From assembly GCF_030070105.2 (NCBI RefSeq), contig NZ_CP194951.1, forward strand, positions 965,511 through 997,510: a stretch of 32,000 nucleotides of DNA. The letters are read 5' to 3'. Shown here piece by piece: positions 4,361 to 29,299 of this stretch; the first letter of the stretch is position 1; each line of letters starts with the position of its first letter. The position numbers and the translations under genes were made by a program. This DNA is from Bermanella sp. WJH001. GTDB taxonomy: Bacteria > Pseudomonadota > Gammaproteobacteria > Pseudomonadales > Oceanobacteraceae. The notes beneath the pieces are model-generated. The model was not told where the DNA came from. It saw only the letters and a list, made by a program, of their open reading frames with translations, and made no database searches.

Positions 4361-5113
4361 ATGAATAAAGATAAAGAGCCAGAACAGTTAGCGTCTATTG
4401 CACTTAGCCGAGAGGAAATTGCCAGTCGTCAGCGCACTGCGGGTAAACTGAAACCACCCTCATCAAATACTACATCTACAAATGCGCCAAAGGTTTTGTG
4501 GGCATTAGTGGTTTTTGCCCTTGTTTTTTGTGTGGCTTTATTGGTGGAGCTTTATAGCGTTAAGCAGCAATCAGAGTTGCAATTGCAGGCGTTAACTATT
4601 TTACAAGAGAAGTTAACATCAACAGATGAACAAGCGAATTTATCGGTTGATGCGGTGAAAATTTTATTGCGTGAGCAAGACCATGAAATTAGAAAATTAT
4701 GGGATCTGGCTAATAAGCGAAATAAGGTTGATATCAGCAAAAATGCGGACCGATTAAACGATCAAAGTAAGTTGTTAACCAAGCACGCTGGCAAAATTGA
4801 TTTGTTGAATAAAGAGTTAGATAAAACTGAAAAACTGTTGTGTAGTGTCAGTACATCAAACAAACAAACTCAAGACAGTGTGAAAACCATAAAAAGTGAA
4901 TTAGAGCAGTCAAAAACCAATGTGTTACTGCTTGAGACCAAATTGGATTCAGGTTTGTCAGGTTTACCAAAAAATGTGGGTAAAACCCTAGAAGATCACG
5001 ACAAAGGCATTAAAGCTATGGATGCTACGCGCTTGCAATTAATGCGCAGGATTCAAGCACTTGAAAAAGAAATCAAAGCACTTAAGGCGCCAGCCCCCGC
5101 AGCACAACCTTAA
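4361..5113 (+). CDS. Hypothetical single-pass membrane protein with long coiled-coil
   Basis: TM segment VLWALVVFALVFCVALLVELYS followed by extended heptad-like regions and a terminator at 5129. Confidence 0.75.
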   Translation: MNKDKEPEQLASIALSREEIASRQRTAGKLKPPSSNTTSTNAPKVLWALVVFALVFCVALLVELYSVKQQSELQLQALTILQEKLTSTDEQANLSVDAVKILLREQDHEIRKLWDLANKRNKVDISKNADRLNDQSKLLTKHAGKIDLLNKELDKTEKLLCSVSTSNKQTQDSVKTIKSELEQSKTNVLLLETKLDSGLSGLPKNVGKTLEDHDKGIKAMDATRLQLMRRIQALEKEIKALKAPAPAAQP

Positions 5114-5128
5114 TGACGTGAATTCAAC

Positions 5129-5152
5129 AAAGCCCTTAATGGGCTTTTTTTT
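5129..5152 (+). terminator. Rho-independent terminator
   Basis: AAAGCCC TTAAT GGGCTTT followed by TTTTT. Confidence 0.8.
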
Positions 5153-5162
5153 GGATGAAAAA

Positions 5163-6056
5163 ATGGATAGCAGATTCGAAACGCACCTTGCGCTGCCGTG
5201 TTTTAAACATTTTGATGAGTTTTCTGATGCGGTTTTATCACAAGATAAATCTCATAGCATGGATGTGGCGTTAAATATTGGACTGCGCTGTGTAAATTTA
5301 TCCCAAGGGTTTGCGGTGGCGTATCGTTGTGCGCTGCAAGCTTTAGTGCCGCAATTAAACCAAACACAATGGGCGGCCATGTGTGTGACAGAGCAGCAGG
5401 GAAATCATCCGCGTCATATCCAAACTCAACTTTATTCAGATGGCACGGTGAGCGGTGAAAAGAGCTTTGTGTCAATGGCTGGTTTAGCACAACAGTTACT
5501 TGTGATTGCGAAAGATACCGGCATTCAAACCCATGATGCTCGCCCGGTACTAAAAGCAGTATTGGTGGATACGAATCAAACCCAAGTAAAAATAGATAAA
5601 ATGCCCGCCATGAAAATGCTGGCCGATATTCCTCACGGTCGTTTGAGTCTAGAACATGCGAGCTGCGAAGTTTTAGAGGGCGATGGTTATGCGCAGTACA
5701 GCAAAGTATTTAGAGTGCTTGAGGATGCGCATATTTTAATGGCAGCCAGTGCCTTTATTTTGAATACGGCTTATAGGGCCGGGCAGGTGGATGTGGTTGC
5801 CAAAGCACTGTCAATTATTGGTCTATTAAAAGGCATGGATTTGAATGCAGGGCCTTGGGTGCATATACAATTAGCACAGGCATTTGAGCAGTTTTTAACG
5901 TTAAGTAATGTGTTTGAAGAGGGTTTATCTGTTTATGATGAAACGCTTGCGCAGGCTTGGCTGGCGGATAAAAAATTATTTGCCATTGCCTCTGGTGCGC
6001 GCCAAGCACGCACCGAAAAGGCCATGAGTTGGCTTAAAGCTAAGGGCGAGGAGTAG
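5163..6056 (+). CDS. Hypothetical protein
   Basis: ORF track starts at 5061, but that start overlaps the upstream gene and terminator; ATG at 5163 (MDSRFETHLALPCF) is more likely. Confidence 0.7.
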   Translation: MDSRFETHLALPCFKHFDEFSDAVLSQDKSHSMDVALNIGLRCVNLSQGFAVAYRCALQALVPQLNQTQWAAMCVTEQQGNHPRHIQTQLYSDGTVSGEKSFVSMAGLAQQLLVIAKDTGIQTHDARPVLKAVLVDTNQTQVKIDKMPAMKMLADIPHGRLSLEHASCEVLEGDGYAQYSKVFRVLEDAHILMAASAFILNTAYRAGQVDVVAKALSIIGLLKGMDLNAGPWVHIQLAQAFEQFLTLSNVFEEGLSVYDETLAQAWLADKKLFAIASGARQARTEKAMSWLKAKGEE

Positions 6057-9520: not shown

Positions 9521-9856
9521 ATGTTAACGGATTTACATTGTGAAATTTGTAATCGTGACTCGGTCAAAGTAACCGAGCAAGAGTGCGCTGAGTATTTAAA
9601 GTTTTTGCCTCACTGGCAAATAATTACAGAGAATAATGTACAAAAATTACGCCGTGAATTTAAATTTACTACATATCAAGCAGGATTGAACTTTACCAAT
9701 CAAGTGGCCGCGTTAGCAGAAGATGAAAACCACCATCCCGATCTGATATTGCAGTGGGGGCGCGTCACGGTAATATGGTGGACACATTCGATAAATGCTT
9801 TGCATAAAAATGATTTTATTTTAGCGGCTAAAACCGATGTTTTATATCAAGATTAA
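9521..9856 (+). CDS. phhB: 4a-hydroxytetrahydrobiopterin dehydratase (pterin-4a-carbinolamine dehydratase)
   Basis: LPHWQIITENNVQKLRREFKFTTYQAGLNFTNQVAALAEDENHHPDLILQWGRVTVIWWTHSINALHKNDFILAAKTD. Confidence 0.9.
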   Translation: MLTDLHCEICNRDSVKVTEQECAEYLKFLPHWQIITENNVQKLRREFKFTTYQAGLNFTNQVAALAEDENHHPDLILQWGRVTVIWWTHSINALHKNDFILAAKTDVLYQD

Positions 9857-10197
9857 CGGCTGAGCCGAATGGTACTTACTCTTAACACCCTGCCTTCACA
9901 GCCGTTGGTGATAATGGCCAGCGGCAAGCGGCTCTTGAAAGCCTCAAGGGCTAACAAAAAACGCCTTTGTGCCACCGCATCATATTCACTGTAAACCCGA
10001 TAAACATTGGAAGGCTTGCCACCGCAGTTGTGAATTTTATTACTTGAATGGATATCAAACGGAGCTTCTTCGTCATCTTCGCGCTGCTCTAAGGCACTTA
10101 CCACTAATCCCTCCACAATTTGATCGCTCGACCAAGATATGGCCGAAACTGTGCACATTAGCAGTGAGCAAATAAATATGCGTAATGACATTATCAT
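9853..10197 (-). CDS. Hypothetical secreted protein
   Basis: Signal-peptide-like N terminus (IFICSLLMCTVSAISWS); coding assignment rests on ORF integrity only. Confidence 0.55.
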   Translation of the reverse strand: MIMSLRIFICSLLMCTVSAISWSSDQIVEGLVVSALEQREDDEEAPFDIHSSNKIHNCGGKPSNVYRVYSEYDAVAQRRFLLALEAFKSRLPLAIITNGCEGRVLRVSTIRLSR

Positions 10198-12091: not shown

Positions 12092-14032
12092 ATGTTGAGA
12101 CAATATTTATTAGTAAGCCTTGCTCTAATTAGTATTTCGCTAATGGTTCAAGGAGCGAATAGTCCGGTAGAAGTGCAAACCAAAACCGACGACCTTGAAG
12201 AGATTCAATTAAAATCCCGCTTAGAAGAAAGCTTGGCTCGCGATATACAATCTTACTTAGGGCATAACCGCTTTATTGTGAATGTGAATGTAAGGCTTGA
12301 AAAAATACGTCAGGTGATCAAGAAAAAAAATAAACCAGAAACTAAACCTAATAAGGCATATCAGCCTACTTTTTTACCAAAGTTAACCTTTCCTAATTCG
12401 GTTGAATCAGATGACTCGGAACAAGTGGAAAGCCTGCCTGGTTTGCCGTTTGTTGATATTCCTGGTGATAAAGAAAAAGACGCAGAGCTTCAGTTTATGC
12501 GTGAGCAAATTGAACGCCTTCAAAATGAGCAGCGTCAGCCTAGGTGGCAAAACGGTGAAGGTGATGATGAGAATGGTAATGGCTCAACGGAGGAAACCGT
12601 AGGCGTATTTAATCGCATTGCAAAATTAAAAGTGACCCTTGCGGTTGAAGAAAGTATTAGCTCTGAGCAAGAGGCTTTTTTAAGAAATCTTGTTTATCAA
12701 AAAGCGGCGTTAAATGATTTACGTGGTGATGAATTAAAGATTGTTAAAACACAATTTTCTGCCTTACCCATCAGCGAAAAAGAAATGGCTAATTTGGCCT
12801 CCCCTTATACAGATGAGGCTGCACCTGCTCAAAGCTGGATGGATGAAAATTTTAACGCGCTATTATTAGGCTTGTTGAGTCTGCTTGCTTTGTTGTTAAT
12901 TAGTTTGATTATTTTGTCGTTACGTAAAAAGAATAAACCTAATGATTTACCAGCGGCCATACCTGTGCCTAAGGAACTCAGCGCTGAAAACCCCAAGCCA
13001 GCAGAGCAAGAAGGCCCAGATAATAAACAGATAATGCAAAAAACACGTCAAGAGATTATCTCTTTAGGCTTGGGCCAGCCTCAACATGTGCAAGGCACCA
13101 TGGATCAGTTGTTAAGCCAAGAAGAAAAAATCCCAATGGCGGCCTCTATTTACAAGGTATTAGGGCGCAGTTTATTTCGTTCTATTTTTCCTAATGTGGA
13201 ACAACTGCAACTGCAAAGTATCATGGCTCATTTAGCGGATCAGGCTCCTGATGAAGACCAGCAATTTCAAGATACCCAAGACTTTTATCAGTTGTTGCAA
13301 AAAGCGGTGCAAGAAACAGATGAAGTGAAATCTCATCCGTTTGAATTTTTAGGTAAGTTAAACGACAGCCAAGTGCTGTATTTGATGCAGCATGAAGATG
13401 CACGTATCCAGGCTTTAGTGATTAGTCAGTTGCAAGCACAACAAGCTGCAAGGGTTTTAAATCGAATCAATGAAAAACGCCAAGCCCAAGTGATTGCCGA
13501 ACTTGGCCAGTTTGAAACCTTCCCTCTTGATACCTTTAAGGATGTAGCAGATCGCTTAGCAAAAGCGGCACTTAAGGTTCCAAGCTTTGAAAATGTAAAC
13601 GCTGATGGCCTACACATGCTGATGAATATGTTAGATAACATGAATTCAACAGAAGAAAACAAAGTGCTAAAACGTTTAAAACAAGATAAGCCCGATACCT
13701 TTTATAAATTGCGCCAACAATATTTTACCTTTGCGGATATTGCTAAAACACCAAGGCAAATTCTTAGTAATGCCTTACGTGAAGTGGAACGTAGTTTTAT
13801 TGGGCGTGCCATTTGCGGCACACCGGATGAGTTTAAAATCCATGTTTTATCCTCGCTTACACCAAAACTCAAAGCTTTAGCGCAAGAAGATCTTAAACGC
13901 TATGAGGGACGAATAGCAGCAAAAGACATTGAACCAGCCCGTAAAGCCATTGTGCATAAACTGCGTGAGTACATTCATACGGGTAAATTTTCGATGGATG
14001 AGTTGCAAGCTAAAAAGCAGGCTGAATCATGA
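12092..14032 (+). CDS. FliF-like/FliG-like fusion membrane protein
   Basis: Signal peptide; FliF-like LEESLARDIQSYLGHNRFIVNVNVRLE and IAKLKVTLAVEESISSEQEAFLRNLVYQKAALNDLRGDELKIVKTQF; TM FNALLLGLLSLLALLLISLIIL; FliG-M-like HPFEFLGKLNDSQVLYLMQHEDARIQALVISQLQAQQAARVLNRI and FliG-C-like region to the end. Confidence 0.75.
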   Translation: MLRQYLLVSLALISISLMVQGANSPVEVQTKTDDLEEIQLKSRLEESLARDIQSYLGHNRFIVNVNVRLEKIRQVIKKKNKPETKPNKAYQPTFLPKLTFPNSVESDDSEQVESLPGLPFVDIPGDKEKDAELQFMREQIERLQNEQRQPRWQNGEGDDENGNGSTEETVGVFNRIAKLKVTLAVEESISSEQEAFLRNLVYQKAALNDLRGDELKIVKTQFSALPISEKEMANLASPYTDEAAPAQSWMDENFNALLLGLLSLLALLLISLIILSLRKKNKPNDLPAAIPVPKELSAENPKPAEQEGPDNKQIMQKTRQEIISLGLGQPQHVQGTMDQLLSQEEKIPMAASIYKVLGRSLFRSIFPNVEQLQLQSIMAHLADQAPDEDQQFQDTQDFYQLLQKAVQETDEVKSHPFEFLGKLNDSQVLYLMQHEDARIQALVISQLQAQQAARVLNRINEKRQAQVIAELGQFETFPLDTFKDVADRLAKAALKVPSFENVNADGLHMLMNMLDNMNSTEENKVLKRLKQDKPDTFYKLRQQYFTFADIAKTPRQILSNALREVERSFIGRAICGTPDEFKIHVLSSLTPKLKALAQEDLKRYEGRIAAKDIEPARKAIVHKLREYIHTGKFSMDELQAKKQAES

Positions 14033-14826
14033 TTAGCTTTAGTACGTTAATTGGCATAACCGCAGGTATTGGCTTATTTATTATGGCCATTATCAGTAGC
14101 ACTGATAATTACATGATGTTTATCAGTCTTGCCAGCGCCATGATGGTGATTGGTAGTACCTTTGCAGCGTCGTTGATTAGCTTTAGTTTTTTAGAGGTGA
14201 TGCATGCCATCAAAGCCATGTTTCAAACATTAGCGGCAAGTCGAACCACCCAAGGGCATTTACGTGACTTAGTAAAACGCTTTGTGGAATTTAGTCGTAT
14301 TTATCGTGACGGCGGTATTTCTGCCCTTGAGGACAGTTTAACCAAGCAAGAGAAAAAAGATGAATTTCTGGCGTTAGGTTTGGAGCTAATGGGTTCGGGT
14401 TACAAGCAAAGTGATATTCGCGTGATTATGGGGGATGCCATGGACAGTCATTGGCAGCGCCAAAGTTTAGAAGGCAAAATCCTCAATACCATGGGAGTGT
14501 ATGCACCGGGCTTTGGCATGGTGGGTACAATCGTAGGCTTGATCATCATGCTTGATAACATGGGTGATGATATGGCGAACTTGGGTAAGGGTCTTGCCTT
14601 GGCGTTAATCACCACCTTGTATGGTGTGTTATTGGCCAATTTGTTATTTAAACCCACCGCTGCCCAGGTGACCGAAAAACAAGAGCAGGAATATTTCCGT
14701 AATCAACTGATCACAGATGGGTTTGTATTGCTGGCCGAAAAGAAAGATGCCCTTGTGATGCAAGACCGTCTCAACGCTTATGTTAAACCCACTAAGCGCT
14801 TTACCATAGTTGAAGCCAATGAGTGA
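14029..14826 (+). CDS. MotA/PomA-like stator subunit
   Basis: Four hydrophobic segments; YAPGFGMVGTIVGLIIMLDNMGDDMANLGKGLALALITTLYGVLLANLLF. Confidence 0.9.
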   Translation: MISFSTLIGITAGIGLFIMAIISSTDNYMMFISLASAMMVIGSTFAASLISFSFLEVMHAIKAMFQTLAASRTTQGHLRDLVKRFVEFSRIYRDGGISALEDSLTKQEKKDEFLALGLELMGSGYKQSDIRVIMGDAMDSHWQRQSLEGKILNTMGVYAPGFGMVGTIVGLIIMLDNMGDDMANLGKGLALALITTLYGVLLANLLFKPTAAQVTEKQEQEYFRNQLITDGFVLLAEKKDALVMQDRLNAYVKPTKRFTIVEANE

Positions 14827-15499
14827 TAAGGCCTACAAACGAGGTTTAAGACGTCGCCGGGCCACGTTTGATGCCGATGGTGAAGGCTGGTTGGTCACCT
14901 ATGCGGATGCCATAACCTTGTTATTGGCGTTTTTTGTTATGATTCTTTCAGTGTCTGACTTAAACCAAGGCAAGATAGAGGCATTAAAAGAAGGCTTGGC
15001 CAGTATTATTTCAGGCAAGCAAGCCGAAACCCCGTTTAACGATATTAAAGATGCGCTTAATGACATTGTTGCGCAGCACGATATGCAAGATAACGTGACG
15101 GTGGATATCGACATGAAAGGGGTAAGGGTAGAGTTCTCAAACTTCTCTCTTTATCAATCCGGCAGTGCCGCCATCAAGCCTGAAGCCTTGCCCATGCTGG
15201 CAGAGGTTAGCAAGGTCATCAAAGATACCAGTTCAGCCACCCATTTGATTGAAATCGAAGGCCATACTGATGATGTGCCCATCAGCACAGAGCGTTTCCC
15301 CTCAAATTGGGAGCTAAGCGCCTCACGTGCCAGCAATGTGGTGAAATACCTCATGGGTAAAGGTGTTAATAAGGAGCGCTTAAAGGCTTCTGGTTACGCA
15401 GATTCTCGTCCTAAGGCTAAACTTGAAGAAGGACAGGCCTTCACAGAAGAAGACAGGGCGGCAAATCGGCGTGTGGTGATTTATGTTCGCCGCTTCTGA
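14819..15499 (+). CDS. MotB-like stator subunit with OmpA peptidoglycan-binding domain
   Basis: WLVTYADAITLLLAFFVMILSVSDLNQGK with the conserved channel Asp; IEIEGHTDDVPIS...NWELSASRASNVVKYL...NRRVVIYVRR. ATG at 14819 overlaps the MotA-like stop. Confidence 0.9.
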   Translation: MSDKAYKRGLRRRRATFDADGEGWLVTYADAITLLLAFFVMILSVSDLNQGKIEALKEGLASIISGKQAETPFNDIKDALNDIVAQHDMQDNVTVDIDMKGVRVEFSNFSLYQSGSAAIKPEALPMLAEVSKVIKDTSSATHLIEIEGHTDDVPISTERFPSNWELSASRASNVVKYLMGKGVNKERLKASGYADSRPKAKLEEGQAFTEEDRAANRRVVIYVRRF

Positions 15500-26255: not shown

Positions 26256-26633
26256 ATGTCTAAATCTTTCGAAGCTCAGGGTGTTGTTCATTCCATCGGT
26301 GCCACCACAGAATACGGTAACAACGGCTTTACTAAGCGTGAGTTTGTCATCCAGTTAACCGGTGATGGCGAAAACCCAGATTACCCAAATTTTGTCGCTT
26401 TAGAGTTAATCAAAGACAAGTGTGCACTTATGGATAATTACAACATTGGTGATGAGATCACTGTGCACTTCAACCTATCTGGACGTCTATGGAACGCCCC
26501 TGGCAAGCCAGAGAAATGTTTTACTAGTCTACAAGCATGGCGCATTGAAAGTGGCGCACAGGCTCAACAAGGGGCGCCAGCGTTTGATCAGTCACAGCCA
26601 GGTCACGGCTTTGATGACGACGTACCGTTTTAG
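26256..26633 (+). CDS. DUF3127-like protein (ssDNA-binding-protein-like fold)
   Basis: FEAQGVVHSIGATTEY...KREFVIQLTG...YPNFVALELIKDKCALMDNYNIGDEITVHFNLSGRLWN...KCFTSLQAWRIE. Confidence 0.75.
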   Translation: MSKSFEAQGVVHSIGATTEYGNNGFTKREFVIQLTGDGENPDYPNFVALELIKDKCALMDNYNIGDEITVHFNLSGRLWNAPGKPEKCFTSLQAWRIESGAQAQQGAPAFDQSQPGHGFDDDVPF

Positions 26634-26650
26634 AGGTCACCTATGATAAT

Positions 26651-26676
26651 AGCCGCCATGCCAAGGGCGGCTTTTA
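26651..26676 (+). terminator. Rho-independent terminator
   Basis: AGCCGCC...GGCGGCT followed by TTTATT. Confidence 0.75.
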
Positions 26677-26772
26677 TTCTTCGAGGTATGTGAAATTCAT
26701 ATGCTCTTAGTAGTGCCAATCGAGCACATTTGGTAAGCTGAGCTATTAATCTGTACCTGCTGAGCCTTTGTT

Positions 26773-28410
26773 ATGCCCATCGAAATTGCTATTTACGCTG
26801 CCATCATCGCGACATTTTCCACTGGTGTATTTATTATGCACCGCCAGTTTGCCCAACAACGCCAAGCCTTTTTGCAAGAAAAACAGGCACTGGAGCAAGT
26901 TAACCAAGGGCTGGTTCACAACCAAGAGCAATACCGCAATCAGTTACAACAGGTTCAAACCCAGCTTGCCTTAAGTGAAAATCAAGCAGACAACAGCAAG
27001 CAGCAGCTTCAGCAAGTGCAACAAAGCTTGCAGCAAGCTCAAACTCAATTAGAACTAAACCGTAGCCAATTAAGCCAAGCCGAAGGCCAGCTTAAGCATC
27101 AACAAGCCACATTAGAACAACGTGAACTGGATGTGCAAAAGCTTGCGCAAAAAGAAGCTTTAATAGAGACGCTCAATACCCAATTGAGTGACCTAAAAAC
27201 CCAGCTCAACCAAGAACAAGTGGAGCGTCAAAAAGATCAGCAAAATCTTGAAGAGAAGCTTGAATTGCTGCAAGCCAATAAAGCCCAATTGAGTCAAGAA
27301 TTTGAAAACCTATCTAATAAAATATTTGAAGAGAAAAACAAACAATTCAAACAAACCTCACAAGAAGGTTTGAGTAGTTTATTAAACCCATTTAAAGACC
27401 AACTTGAAGGCTTACGTAAAAAAGTAGATGACGTTTACGTAGAAGAAAGTAAAGACCGTGCTGCTCTTAAAGCTCAAATTGGCGAGTTACATAATTTAAA
27501 TAAGCAAATCACAGAAGAAGCGGCCTCATTGGCGCGGGCGTTACGTGGTGAAAAGAAAACCCAAGGTAACTGGGGCGAACTAGTTTTAGAAACCGTATTG
27601 GAAAAATCCGGTTTGCGCCAAGGTGAAGAATTTACCCGTGAAAAAAGCATTAATAATGACGAGGGTACGCGTTATCGCCCAGACGTTATTATTAACTTAC
27701 CAGAAGATAAACATATTGTGGTGGATGCTAAAGTATCTTTAAACGCCTACACAGATTACATCAATGCAGAAAACGATGCAGACCGTATACGCTTTCTAAA
27801 GCAACATGTAGATGCGGTGCGTATGCACATTAAAACGCTGGCCGATAAGTCTTACGCTAAATTACCAGGTGTAAATAGTCCGGATTTTGTTTTCATGTTT
27901 ATGCCAATTGAACCGGCTTTTATGATTGCATTTGAGCATGATGATAAATTATTTAATGACGCGTTTGAGCAACGTATTGTGGTGGTAACGCCAACCACCT
28001 TATTGGCCAGTTTGCGTACGGTTTCCAGCTTATGGAGTATTGAGCGTCAAAATAAGAGCGCCAAACAGTTAGCGGATCAAGCTGCAAAAGTGCATGACAA
28101 GTTAGTCGGTTTTGTCGAAAGTATGGAGAAAGTCGGTGCCCAGTTACATACCGTACAAGGAACCTACGATAAAGCGTGGAGCCAACTTAAAGAAGGCCGT
28201 GGTAACTTAATAAGCCAAGCCCATAAATTCAAAGACCTAGGTGTGCGCACGAAAAAAGAATTATCGTCACAGGTGACCGAGTCCGCTGAACTTGAGTTTG
28301 AAGATGACGAAGCAAAAAGCCTTGTCATAGAAAAACCGAAGGCCAAAAAAGATAAACACGCCGACAGTGCGGTTATCCCACAAACGGCATTTGAATTAAG
28401 CGATGATTAA
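26773..28410 (+). CDS. rmuC: DNA recombination protein RmuC
   Basis: N-terminal TM and long coiled-coil; GNWGELVLETVLEKSGLRQGEEFTREKS...RPDVIINLPEDKHIVVDAKVSLNAYTDYINAE. Confidence 0.95.
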   Translation: MPIEIAIYAAIIATFSTGVFIMHRQFAQQRQAFLQEKQALEQVNQGLVHNQEQYRNQLQQVQTQLALSENQADNSKQQLQQVQQSLQQAQTQLELNRSQLSQAEGQLKHQQATLEQRELDVQKLAQKEALIETLNTQLSDLKTQLNQEQVERQKDQQNLEEKLELLQANKAQLSQEFENLSNKIFEEKNKQFKQTSQEGLSSLLNPFKDQLEGLRKKVDDVYVEESKDRAALKAQIGELHNLNKQITEEAASLARALRGEKKTQGNWGELVLETVLEKSGLRQGEEFTREKSINNDEGTRYRPDVIINLPEDKHIVVDAKVSLNAYTDYINAENDADRIRFLKQHVDAVRMHIKTLADKSYAKLPGVNSPDFVFMFMPIEPAFMIAFEHDDKLFNDAFEQRIVVVTPTTLLASLRTVSSLWSIERQNKSAKQLADQAAKVHDKLVGFVESMEKVGAQLHTVQGTYDKAWSQLKEGRGNLISQAHKFKDLGVRTKKELSSQVTESAELEFEDDEAKSLVIEKPKAKKDKHADSAVIPQTAFELSDD

Positions 28411-28450
28411 ATCAAGATAGTTTGAATCTTCTATATTAAAAGGATGTTGT

Positions 28451-29299
28451 ATGGCGAGTCACTTAACCGAAAAAGAAAGTAATTCTGTCATTGATCAAAA
28501 GCGTTTTGCATTTTTAGAGTTGCTTTTAATTTGGGAAGGGCGCATTCAGCCAAAACACCTTGCACAACAATTTGAGCTAGGCGAAAAGCTCGCCAAGCAT
28601 GTTATTCAAAAGTATAAAAACCTTTACCCTGAAAATATTCAATATCACGGTGCCAGTGATAGTTATCAGGCCGGTTTAAATATGCTGGCACAATTTACAA
28701 ATGGCACGTTGCAAGAATACATGCAGTATATGGCCAATACTGAAACCGTATCCAGTTTAGAGTTGCCTAATCGGAATTTACAACCTGCATTAGTGCGTCC
28801 TATCTTACAAGCCATCCGCGAAAAATTGAGATTAAAGATTGGATATGCATCGGTCTCAAACCCTAATTTCGTAGAGCGTGTTATCCAACCCCACCATTTG
28901 GTATTTGACGGTATGCGTTGGCATGTTCGTGGTTATTGTGAAAACAATCAGGGCTACCGTGATTTTGTATTGAGTCGCTTTCAGCCTGACACACCTGCAC
29001 AATTGTTGGATGGTGCAGACCAGTTTGATATTCAAGATGAGGTTTGGCACAACCTGTTAAACGTTGAGTTTATGCCGGACCCAAGGTTAGATGAGAATCG
29101 CGCTCGCATTATTGCATTAGATTACGACATGCCGCTTACCAGTCATGGATATCGTAAAACGCAACAAGTACGCCAAGCTTTGTTGATGTATTGGGTGCAG
29201 CGTATGGGCCTGAATCAATATCATAACAATCCACAAGCACAGCAGATTATTTTGACGCCCGAATGTGATCAGGCGTTGAAAGAGTATTTACCCAGCTAA
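28451..29299 (+). CDS. WYL-domain transcriptional regulator, BrxR/CapW-like
   Basis: N-terminal wHTH-like region (RFAFLELLLIWEGRIQPKHLAQQFELGEKLAKHVIQKYKNL) and WYL core IQPHHLVFDGMRWHVRGYCENNQGYRDFVLSRF. Confidence 0.78.
   Translation: MASHLTEKESNSVIDQKRFAFLELLLIWEGRIQPKHLAQQFELGEKLAKHVIQKYKNLYPENIQYHGASDSYQAGLNMLAQFTNGTLQEYMQYMANTETVSSLELPNRNLQPALVRPILQAIREKLRLKIGYASVSNPNFVERVIQPHHLVFDGMRWHVRGYCENNQGYRDFVLSRFQPDTPAQLLDGADQFDIQDEVWHNLLNVEFMPDPRLDENRARIIALDYDMPLTSHGYRKTQQVRQALLMYWVQRMGLNQYHNNPQAQQIILTPECDQALKEYLPS

Follow-up and report, generated by a model that had tools for sequence, protein, structure and literature searches.

The 32,000-nucleotide stretch of DNA analysed here, called the window below, comes from Bermanella sp. 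WJH001 (contig NZ_CP194951.1, positions 965,511 to 997,510 of the forward strand) and carries an operon of five tightly packed genes. The third gene encodes, in one polypeptide, a FliF-like periplasmic domain and a FliG-like cytoplasmic region, and its neighbours encode a secreted protein, a tetratricopeptide-repeat (TPR) lipoprotein and a MotA/MotB-like stator pair (Table 1). An initial annotation had described the third gene as a natural fusion of a shortened FliF-like ring protein with the FliG middle and C-terminal domains. The natural fusion of a domain like RBM3, the third ring-building motif (RBM) of FliF, with a FliG-like region in a single protein is confirmed here; the peptide strings quoted at that time are all found in the translation of the open reading frame, and the layout of signal peptide, FliF-like domain, one transmembrane (TM) helix, FliG_M and FliG_C holds in Pfam, Foldseek and hydrophobicity analyses. 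The parts, topology signals and key residues reported below, and likewise the conservation of the module and the selection, are computational results.

The fusion gene and its operon

The reading frame of the fusion starts 6 nt after an AAGGGG ribosome-binding site. The operon junctions are spacers of 10 and 9 nt followed by overlaps of 4 and 8 nt: gene 2 starts 10 nt after gene 1 with its own AGGA ribosome-binding site, the start of gene 4 overlaps the stop of gene 3 as ATGA, and the ATG of gene 5 gives an 8-nt overlap with the motA stop. No family of Pfam, NCBIfam or PADLOC covers the whole fusion protein. Its score against the FliG equivalog TIGR00207 (73 bits) is below the cut-off of 226.7, and NCBI labels it only as "FliG C-terminal domain-containing protein" or "hypothetical". 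FliG is typically a soluble protein of about 330 amino acids (aa), whereas the fusion has 646 aa and is membrane-anchored.

Table 1. Genes of the operon and features of the fusion protein, in window coordinates
Feature	Position	Strand	Remarks
Gene 1, secreted protein, ~369 aa	10333-11442	+	ATG 10333 likelier; reading frame from TTG 10291
Gene 2, TPR lipoprotein, 209 aa	11453-12082	+	Pfam, lipobox
Gene 3, FliF(RBM3)-TM-FliG fusion, 646 aa	12092-14032	+	ATG start
Signal peptide	12092-12157	+	residues 1-22, MLRQYLLVSLALISISLMVQGA; predicted cleavage
Periplasmic FliF RBM3/beta-collar-like domain	12161-12757	+	residues 24-222; Pfam, AlphaFold (AF2), Foldseek, profile against PDB, hhalign
Family-specific collar insert	12329-12586	+	residues 80-165; pLDDT<50 at 79-122 and 149-165
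LPGLP within collar insert	12434-12448	+	residues 115-119
RGD motif, common to FliF	12722-12730	+	residues 211-213
Single transmembrane helix	12854-12925	+	residues ~255-278, then KKNK; N-out, C-in
Helical domain at FliG_N position	13022-13312	+	residues 311-407; helices in AlphaFold model
FliG middle domain	13367-13579	+	residues 426-496; Pfam FliG_M
FliG C-terminal domain	13673-13993	+	residues 528-634; Pfam FliG_C
Torque helix	13856-13909	+	residues 589-606, inside FliG_C
Gene 4, MotA-like stator A subunit, 265 aa	14029-14826	+	MotA_ExbB 5e-22
Gene 5, MotB-like stator B subunit	14819-15499	+	ATG 14819; reading frame from TTG 14810

Membrane topology and the periplasmic half

The only hydrophobic segments lie at residues 1-19 and 257-275, as expected for one export-type signal and one transmembrane helix. 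The first has a short n-region with one charge and a small-residue c-region, and because close relatives carry classic AXA cleavage sites (AYA/E, ASA/E and FSA/E, with the slash at the cut), it is probably a cleavable Sec signal peptide and not a first TM helix. The second has acidic residues before it and RKKNK after it, which places the RBM3 domain in the periplasm and the FliG part in the cytoplasm. The periplasmic FliG topology that would have refuted the initial annotation is therefore not the one predicted.

Four lines of evidence agree that the N-terminal half is FliF-like and corresponds specifically to the RBM3/beta-collar part. In Pfam, YscJ_FliF_C (PF08345) matches residues 54-222 over profile positions 3-147 of 147 (E=4.6e-4, a borderline 21.1 bits); matches to the same family are precomputed for many relatives of about 38% identity, and 9 of 50 broad relatives (18-39% identity) reach E<=1e-3, with a best value of 3.6e-6. 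In structure prediction, AlphaFold models of the whole protein (predicted local distance difference test, pLDDT, 71.7) and of the periplasmic domain alone (70.1) have the same order of helices and strands, with a helix at 34-56, a strand at 61-79, an insert, a strand at 165-186, a helix at 191-204 and a strand at 214-220, the two long strands being those of the collar and enclosing the insert. When the model of the periplasmic domain was searched against the PDB with Foldseek, the top 18 matches were all FliF S-ring/RBM3 (E 1.7e-5 to 4.9e-4; probability at least 0.97, and 1.00 in 16 of the 18). The target-normalised template modelling score was 0.14-0.51 across these matches and about 0.5 against RBM3-only chains. 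After FliF there was a gap to E>0.1, and the next matches were other RBM proteins, PrgK and SpoIIIAG (2y9j_Y, E=0.15; 5wc3, E=0.17). A profile built from 13 relatives of the periplasmic domain and searched against all PDB sequences matched a single protein, Salmonella FliF, in a co-linear alignment that pairs the helix DLEEIQLK...RD with FliF 229-254 and ...KLTITL...RGD...F with FliF 355-442. Lastly, hhalign against the single E. coli FliF sequence aligned FliF residues 373-433 (...GFSEKRGDSLNVVNSPF) in the same register as the profile match. The FliF C-terminal periplasmic domain with RGD claimed in the initial annotation thus matches FliF RBM3 in its predicted fold.

The RGD motif is also present in E. 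coli FliF (...GFSEKRGDSLNVV), and among the 50 relatives its Gly and Asp are invariant and its Arg is found in 47. The description of this FliF as shortened also proved apt. PF01514, the family of RBM1 and RBM2, which in FliF make up the inner M-ring around the export gate, has no match in the fusion or in any of the 50 relatives. This leaves RBM3 and a family-specific insert only, and the first RBM3 helix begins about 10 residues after the signal peptide. The insert is largely of low confidence or disordered, with a helix at 127-148, and is variable except for LPGLP, in which P116 is present in 50 of the 50 sequences and L115 and G117 in 49 each. P116, G212 and D213 are the invariant residues of the whole set, and L115, G117, R211, F417, F419, E435, G506 and F547 are at least 90% conserved, so that the two periplasmic motifs, RGD and LPGLP, head the conservation ranking of the fusion.

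The cytoplasmic half

The FliG identity of the cytoplasmic half is beyond doubt. FliG_M (PF14841) matches with E=1.9e-12 and 47.6 bits against a cut-off of 25, and it does so in all 50 relatives; FliG_C (PF01706) matches with E=2.8e-17 and 63.4 bits against 23.3. In phmmer searches of the PDB, FliG-MC of T. maritima (1lkv) was found at 1.6e-21 and full-length Aquifex FliG at 9.3e-16. Foldseek found FliG at 6e-10 and superimposed FliG_C on 1qc7 (rmsd 1.7-1.9 A) and on 8ucs_H, the FliG_C of a complex with MotAB (rmsd 1.9 A). Both FliG domains named in the initial annotation thus exceed their Pfam cut-offs, but the region is not M plus C alone, as an extra helical domain of about 100 residues occupies the FliG_N position. 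In this domain R319, Q320, G326-L-G328 and P330 are invariant among close relatives. Foldseek alignments of about 316 columns to full-length FliG (3hjl, 8umx and others) cover it, and phmmer against 3hjl extends to FliG residue 56. The Pfam FliG_N match (E=9.5e-4) falls outside it, at residues 441-532. In the flagellar motor, FliG_N co-folds with a C-terminal peptide of FliF.

For the torque helix, the charged residues that contact MotA were mapped on E. coli FliG from MG1655, with column counts over the same 50 relatives. R281 corresponds to K592, which is Arg or Lys in 46 of 50, and D289 to D600, which is acidic in 28 of 50. D288 corresponds to E599, often Ser in the wider family, while K264 and R297 correspond to C575 and A609 and are not kept. 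Cys575 (window 13814-13816) is itself an invariant Cys in 20 of 20 close relatives (36-84% identity), and the wider family has V, Y, S, M and other residues there. In FliG_M, the FliM-binding EHPQ(R) is replaced, in alignments with T. maritima and E. coli FliG, by E435-D-A-R, of which only the Glu is kept (47/50). With EHPQR lost there is no FliM-binding motif and hence no switch complex, and the fusion appears to be a torque-receiving FliG without a docking site for that complex.

The stator and the envelope partners

The MotA-like protein, which corresponds to the four-TM channel subunit of the stator, matches the NCBIfam models MotP, MotA and PomA at 1e-40 to 4e-48, and ExbB/TolQ at only about 17 bits. 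All stator equivalog cut-offs are missed (MotP 163.8 of 394 bits, MotA 140.8 of 340, PomA 136.9 of 341 and MotD 185.2 of 283), so the stator is not an orthologue of any named stator. Against the PDB, the best match was C. sporogenes MotA (8ucs_C, 2.6e-34), followed by PomA (1.2e-29). The R90/E98 pair is found as R-x7-E in YRDGGISALE, and the prolines equivalent to P173 and P222 lie in APGFG and FKPTA. The MotB-like protein has a MotB_plug match (2.1e-14) and an OmpA-like peptidoglycan-binding domain (8.5e-18), and its TM Asp (YADAITLL) is invariant in 10 of 10 MotBs of the module. Judged by these residues and domains, the stator is intact and of flagellar type.

The gene 1 protein has a signal peptide and an N-terminal domain that is weakly similar to FlgO, FlgT_M and LpoB. 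Its best match, FlgO, is sub-threshold (E=0.0019; 18.5 against 22.6 bits), and its orthologues give repeated but weak, sub-threshold matches to FlgO (4/8), FlgT_M (2/8) and LpoB (1/8). No sequence relative was found for it in the PDB, by single sequence or by profile. Its C-terminal ~170 aa contain 7-10 strand-like segments of alternating hydrophobicity and an aromatic end, ...GYRF, suggesting that the product is probably a small outer-membrane barrel. The TPR lipoprotein has the lipobox LAGC with Ser at +2, a linker of about 100 aa and C-terminal TPRs (TPR_1 3e-9, TPR_2 1.6e-8), and its lipobox Cys is present in 9 of 11 orthologues. The same protein has a weak NCBIfam match to the TPR region of Leptospira BatC (E=1.4e-4) and also weakly matches those of GltE, Tgl and PilW.

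Distribution, conservation and selection

An exhaustive hidden Markov model search covered 1.84 billion sequences, each representing one 50%-identity cluster, and gave 155 members of the fusion family at E<=1e-30. Of the 150 that score best, about 130 have a length of 530-780 aa and share the same plan, in which an N-terminal hydrophobic segment is followed by RGD, 30-60 residues ahead of a central TM, and then by FliG; the same architecture occurs on hundreds of independent contigs. The closest relative, from a Bermanella sp. metagenome-assembled genome (MAG; locus L006 of our set), is 96% identical. The 41 loci in species-representative genomes are almost all from Oceanospirillales (Bermanella, Oceaniserpentilla, Thalassolituus, Oleispira, Oceanobacter, Bacterioplanoides and Saccharospirillaceae), cultured strains included. 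The cultivable marine carriers are Thalassolituus hydrocarboniclasticus, T. maritimus DSM 24913, T. pacificus, Oceaniserpentilla sp. and Bermanella sp. R86531. A search seeded with a Fibrobacterales member found only 6 relatives, all uncultured, and a plasmid search with the fusion's N-terminal half gave no match. A 63%-identical copy lies in a MAG labelled Crocinitomicaceae (Bacteroidota; L019, JBLHVV010000051.1), which is probably a binning error rather than a transfer, because every comparable sequence is from Oceanospirillales.

At about 38% identity to the fusion, the five genes occur in the same order, once (L003) with entirely different flanks. At about 30%, in one MAG of Gammaproteobacteria and one of Ectothiorhodospiraceae, the order is a Sel1/SPOR protein, motA, motB, a 372-aa protein, TPR and fusion, and at about 20% (an Elusimicrobia MAG, MBI4369124.1, and Fibrobacterales MAGs, MGL1904045.1) it is fusion, the ~360-aa protein, TPR, motA and motB. 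No flagellar gene was found in the 12-18 kb read at the Elusimicrobia and Fibrobacterales loci. The ~360-aa and TPR partners are homologous across phyla (phmmer 1e-9 to 1e-10 for the former). The TPR gene adjoins the fusion in the window and in L001, L003, L044, L046, L047, L048, L049, L052, L053 and L054, but not in L050 or L051; L048 has no 360-aa gene next to the fusion, and in L051 the MotAB genes are 3.7 kb downstream of it. The retention of the gene set while its order shuffles over large distances is strong evidence that the five genes are a functional unit. The window MotA scores 137-161 bits against module MotAs of other phyla and 122 bits against the best solved flagellar MotA, which hints at a module-specific stator lineage, as far as a comparison of scores that is not a phylogeny can do so.

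Compared with its 96%-identical orthologue, the fusion gene has a dS of 0.87, a dN of 0.024 and a dN/dS of 0.027, with 0.05 for the periplasmic and 0.009 for the cytoplasmic part. The gene is therefore under strong purifying selection, and both halves are constrained.

Several loci have further neighbours. In L044 (2044-3624) and L046 (1569-3140), a 523-526-aa Sel1-repeat protein with a C-terminal SPOR domain lies directly upstream of motA; since SPOR binds septal peptidoglycan, this neighbour may hint at a link with the division septum or with peptidoglycan. In L048 (11496-14573), the TPR-fusion-MotA-MotB genes are followed by MoxR (AAA_3), DUF58, DUF4381 and VWA genes, which resemble a Bat/aerotolerance operon. 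Type II secretion (T2SS) or type IV pilus genes lie a few kb from the module in L049 (14090-17845, Elusimicrobia MAG) and L051 (1-2440), maybe by coincidence; they include PilX_N, T2SSF and T2SSE as well as a secretin and T2SSC, and L048 has a pilin-like gene nearby. L047 (7197-10535) comprises a TPR gene, the fusion and a 207-aa protein that ends in ...GFYVNF and resembles a small outer-membrane protein; its fusion (P0175) still has the torque-helix Arg. In L050 (8001-11709), a 771-aa family member is followed by a KAP-family NTPase.

Genomic setting and regulation

The operon is flanked by housekeeping genes and lies between phhB and pyrG-eno, with sodB, maf, fumarase and phhB upstream and pyrG, eno, ftsB, ispD, ispF, truD, surE, pcm, nlpD, rpoS and rmuC downstream. 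No further flagellar gene (export gate, rod, hook, FliM/FliN) was found elsewhere in the 32 kb. A scan of the sequence for sigma-70 promoters and terminators was not above shuffles, the sigma-54 pattern occurred 40 times where 39 were expected by chance, and never upstream of the operon, and a TAAAG-containing stretch at about 10252 does not complete the sigma-28 consensus.

Between phhB and the module, a reading frame of 114 aa (9853-10197, minus strand) has no family match; a 115-aa reading frame at the same position in L001 and L002 makes it a conserved small gene that is probably real. Downstream of rpoS, at 26256-29299, genes for a DUF3127 protein, RmuC and a WYL-domain protein are grouped. 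WYL proteins are often regulators of defence or DNA-damage genes. At 4361-6056, a 250-aa coiled-coil-like reading frame (weak CCDC93) overlaps by about 50 nt one of 331 aa whose only match is to the middle domain of acyl-CoA dehydrogenases, and the pair is unusual.

Proposed mechanism and alternatives

We consider it probable, with considerable room for doubt, that the fusion is the natural single-chain rotor subunit of a stand-alone, MotAB-driven ring, within a five-gene envelope-spanning machine that is rotary or otherwise transduces force. Ring assembly, rotation, contacts between partners and output are the steps that we infer. After Sec export and probable cleavage of the signal peptide, the RBM3-like domain would lie in the periplasm, one TM helix would cross the inner membrane, and the FliG-like module (an N-like domain, M, and C with the torque helix) would hang in the cytoplasm. 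The subunits may then assemble into a ring, as FliF RBM3 domains and engineered fusions do. The co-encoded stators, presumably peptidoglycan-anchored and of the MotA5B2 type, would let H+ or Na+ pass by way of the conserved Asp of MotB and push the torque helix of FliG_C through charge pairs between the MotA Arg/Glu and FliG Lys592/Asp600, so that the ring turns. The output most likely passes by way of the periplasmic collar, whose insert holds the best-conserved residues of the protein, to two partners that nearly always accompany the fusion gene, the presumed outer-membrane TPR lipoprotein and the ~360-aa secreted protein, which is probably in the outer membrane. In the flagellum, the collar loops of FliF hold the proximal rod. 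By analogy with these loops, the collar insert with LPGLP may grip the target of the ring, for which the TPR lipoprotein, with its peptide-binding fold, would be an obvious candidate.

Several points weigh against this reading. Ring formation and rotation are drawn from analogy, and no protein of known function in the module stands out as an axle or a load. Of the five classical charges of the torque helix, two (K264 and R297) are lost, and the equivalent of a third, D288, is often Ser. On the periplasmic side, the YscJ_FliF_C score of the fusion protein is below the 23.8-bit cut-off, and the profile match to FliF in the PDB is weak (E=1.9). The hhalign probabilities against E. coli FliF and FliG were 7.9% and 46.8%, both low because the templates were single sequences, and these co-linear alignments served for residue mapping only. 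The AlphaFold confidence is moderate (pLDDT ~70; predicted template modelling scores 0.29 and 0.45), and the models leave out the collar insert. The placing of the 369-aa protein in the outer membrane comes from crude sequence heuristics, and no MotAB genes lie within 8 kb of the fusion in L047 or L050.

A more specific form of the stand-alone rotor is a flagellum-independent rotary nanomachine, whose ring spins in the inner membrane and delivers torque through the LPGLP collar to an outer-membrane pair of lipoprotein and barrel; we regard this as a serious possibility, though one that falls somewhat short of an even chance. With the torque core alone, without type III parts, present in several phyla, the module could be a living relative of a pre-flagellar motor or a repeated exaptation.

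The best-surviving alternative, although an unlikely one, is a non-rotating transducer similar to Tol or Ton, in which MotAB provides a limited pull or conformational change that depends on the proton motive force and is relayed to the TPR lipoprotein and an outer-membrane partner, perhaps in a device for Tol-Pal-like envelope maintenance or division; the fusion would then be an oligomeric or monomeric membrane protein. The layout resembles that of Tol-Pal, with a 5:2 motor, an inner-membrane transducer, a periplasmic or outer-membrane partner similar to TolB-N/FlgT_M/LpoB and a CpoB-like TPR protein, and the Sel1 and SPOR protein heads the cluster in the ~30%-identity variant. In addition, FliG is related in fold to the non-rotary MgtE_N, which matches in 21 of the 50 relatives. 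However, the periplasmic domain matches the ring-building RBM3 of FliF and not TolA or TonB, the stator scores about 137-164 bits against flagellar MotA/PomA but about 17 bits against TolQ/ExbB, and the torque-helix Arg/Lys is conserved across the family.

We give a somewhat smaller chance still to an accessory or alternative rotor of the ordinary polar flagellum, either as a second FliG/FliF paralogue that joins the flagellar basal body or regulates it, or as a docking ring that stores spare stators. Sources do annotate the fusion as "flagellar motor switch protein FliG", the stator is of the flagellar type, and the carriers Bermanella, Thalassolituus and Oleispira are described as polarly flagellated. 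Nevertheless, the module has its own MotAB and two dedicated envelope proteins and lies in housekeeping surroundings with no flagellar gene in 32 kb, and the five-gene set is found in Elusimicrobia and Fibrobacterales MAGs with no flagellar gene in the 12-18 kb read. Lacking RBM1 and RBM2, the fusion could not co-assemble around the export gate as FliF does, and the FliM-binding EHPQR is absent. Without RBM1 and RBM2 there is no housing for a type III export gate, and since there is neither this housing nor a switch complex, the system is not a flagellar basal body. The initial annotation treated the fusion as a flagellar rotor, but its context, namely its own MotAB, its two envelope partners, the lack of export gate, rod, hook or FliM/FliN genes nearby and the loss of EHPQR, argues that it does not belong to a flagellum.

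A decaying remnant of a second flagellum, or a fliF-fliG fusion arising by chance or as an assembly artefact, is very improbable: fliF and fliG are adjacent and overlap in ordinary operons such as that of E. coli, where a deletion could fuse them, and a deletion-type fusion did arise in laboratory Salmonella, but the low dN/dS, the architecture shared by most of the best representatives, partners conserved across phyla, a proper N-terminal signal peptide and a family-specific conserved collar motif speak against it, and conservation and dN/dS effectively refute the pseudogene reading. The known instance in which MotAB homologues have partners from outside the flagellum is Zorya, an anti-phage defence that uses a MotAB-type motor as a sensor. 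A Zorya-like role is just as improbable: MotB matches ZorB models (at best 5.2e-20) and MotA has a weak ZorA match (E=0.002), but the ZorB matches stem from general MotB homology, the ZorA score of MotA is 14.8 bits as compared with 122-164 for flagellar MotA/MotP, MotA with its 265 aa lacks the long ZorA tail, nothing like a ZorC/D nuclease or helicase is present, none of the other three proteins has a PADLOC match, and the site is a stable, syntenic housekeeping one with no plasmid homologue. We therefore rejected the Zorya identity, as PADLOC returned generic MotB matches only.

Significance

The flagellar motor's origin is a long-standing open question, and its rotor-stator core is thought to have been derived separately from the type III export and axial parts. 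To our knowledge, no natural system with the flagellar torque core alone has been described. Our literature survey covered papers outside subscription-only journals, so that the word "undescribed" is provisional; it brought up FliF-FliG fusions that were engineered and phylogenies of MotAB in general, but no account of this family. The module offers a self-contained five-gene rotor-stator system with no switch complex and no export gate, in which a one-protein rotor fixes FliF:FliG at 1:1 by construction, and its presence in cultivable marine bacteria makes the question directly testable. If the ring does rotate, the module would be a minimal model of torque generation and a new member of the short list of biological rotary machines, and its phylogenetic position relative to flagellar FliG and MotA would bear on flagellar origins. 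If it does not, the module would show FliG and RBM3 in a second use, as a transducer of force similar to Tol or Ton, and that too would be new.

Comparison with known systems

The outer rings formed by Vibrio FlgO, FlgP and FlgT share with the module an outer-membrane lipoprotein partner and, through the weak FlgO/FlgT_M similarity, the 369-aa protein; unlike them, the module gives matches below curated cut-offs, has no FlgP or MotX/MotY and does not lie in a flagellar locus. Tol-Pal, ExbBD-TonB, GldLM/T9SS and AglRQS-Glt likewise combine a motor of the MotA/MotB family with an inner-membrane transducer and outer-membrane or periplasmic partners. Tol-Pal and Glt have a TPR protein in their operons (CpoB, GltE), and a partner similar to TolB-N/FlgT_M/LpoB is a further likeness. 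In contrast to the Tol, Ton and Gld systems, the transducer of the module is a putative FliG and RBM3 ring protein and not TolA, TonB or GldM, and among the Tol-Pal families (TolA, the TolB beta-propeller and Pal) there was no Pfam or NCBIfam match in the module except TolQ at 17 bits.

The injectisome proteins SctJ/PrgK/YscJ and the sporulation-channel protein SpoIIIAG share the RBM fold with the fusion. SctJ resembles it further in having an N-terminal secretion signal and a C-terminal TM, and SpoIIIAG in having an RBM3-like domain with a beta insert, but neither has a FliG domain or is paired with MotAB, and their structural matches are far weaker than that of FliF RBM3.

In the flagellar motor, FliF and FliG are present at 1:1, and the FliF ring is a ~33-34-mer. 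This natural 1:1 ratio makes the fusion geometrically compatible with a motor. Engineered or spontaneous FliF-FliG fusions of Salmonella and Vibrio alginolyticus are reported to assemble MS-rings (PMC10941966, PMC11481574, PMC6079021). The covalent link between FliF and FliG is hence mechanically plausible. The laboratory fusions (PDB 8z4d/8z4g) also have FliF covalently joined to FliG, but they consist of full-length FliF, with two TMs and RBM1-3, and full-length FliG, amount to 945 aa (8z4d_1) and work within a complete flagellum, whereas the natural fusion is much shorter, at 646 aa, and belongs to a non-flagellar locus.

The flagellar rotor itself consists of FliF, the MS-ring, and FliG, at the top of the C-ring, and is driven by MotAB or PomAB. 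The fusion shares its RBM3/beta-collar with RGD, its FliG_M and FliG_C and the charges equivalent to R281 and D289, and the module stator has the R90/E98-like residues of MotA together with the MotB Asp, plug and OmpA-like domain. Unlike the flagellar rotor, the module has one polypeptide in place of two and a signal peptide with one TM in place of two TMs; it lacks RBM1/RBM2 and EHPQR, and no FliM/FliN, rod, hook or filament genes are nearby. It has instead a large collar insert with LPGLP, and a TPR lipoprotein and a secreted protein of ~360 aa are co-encoded. The module can be described as a flagellar-type rotor-stator pair in a fused, minimal and non-flagellar format with new partners, and the chance that it is a categorically new machine is substantial.

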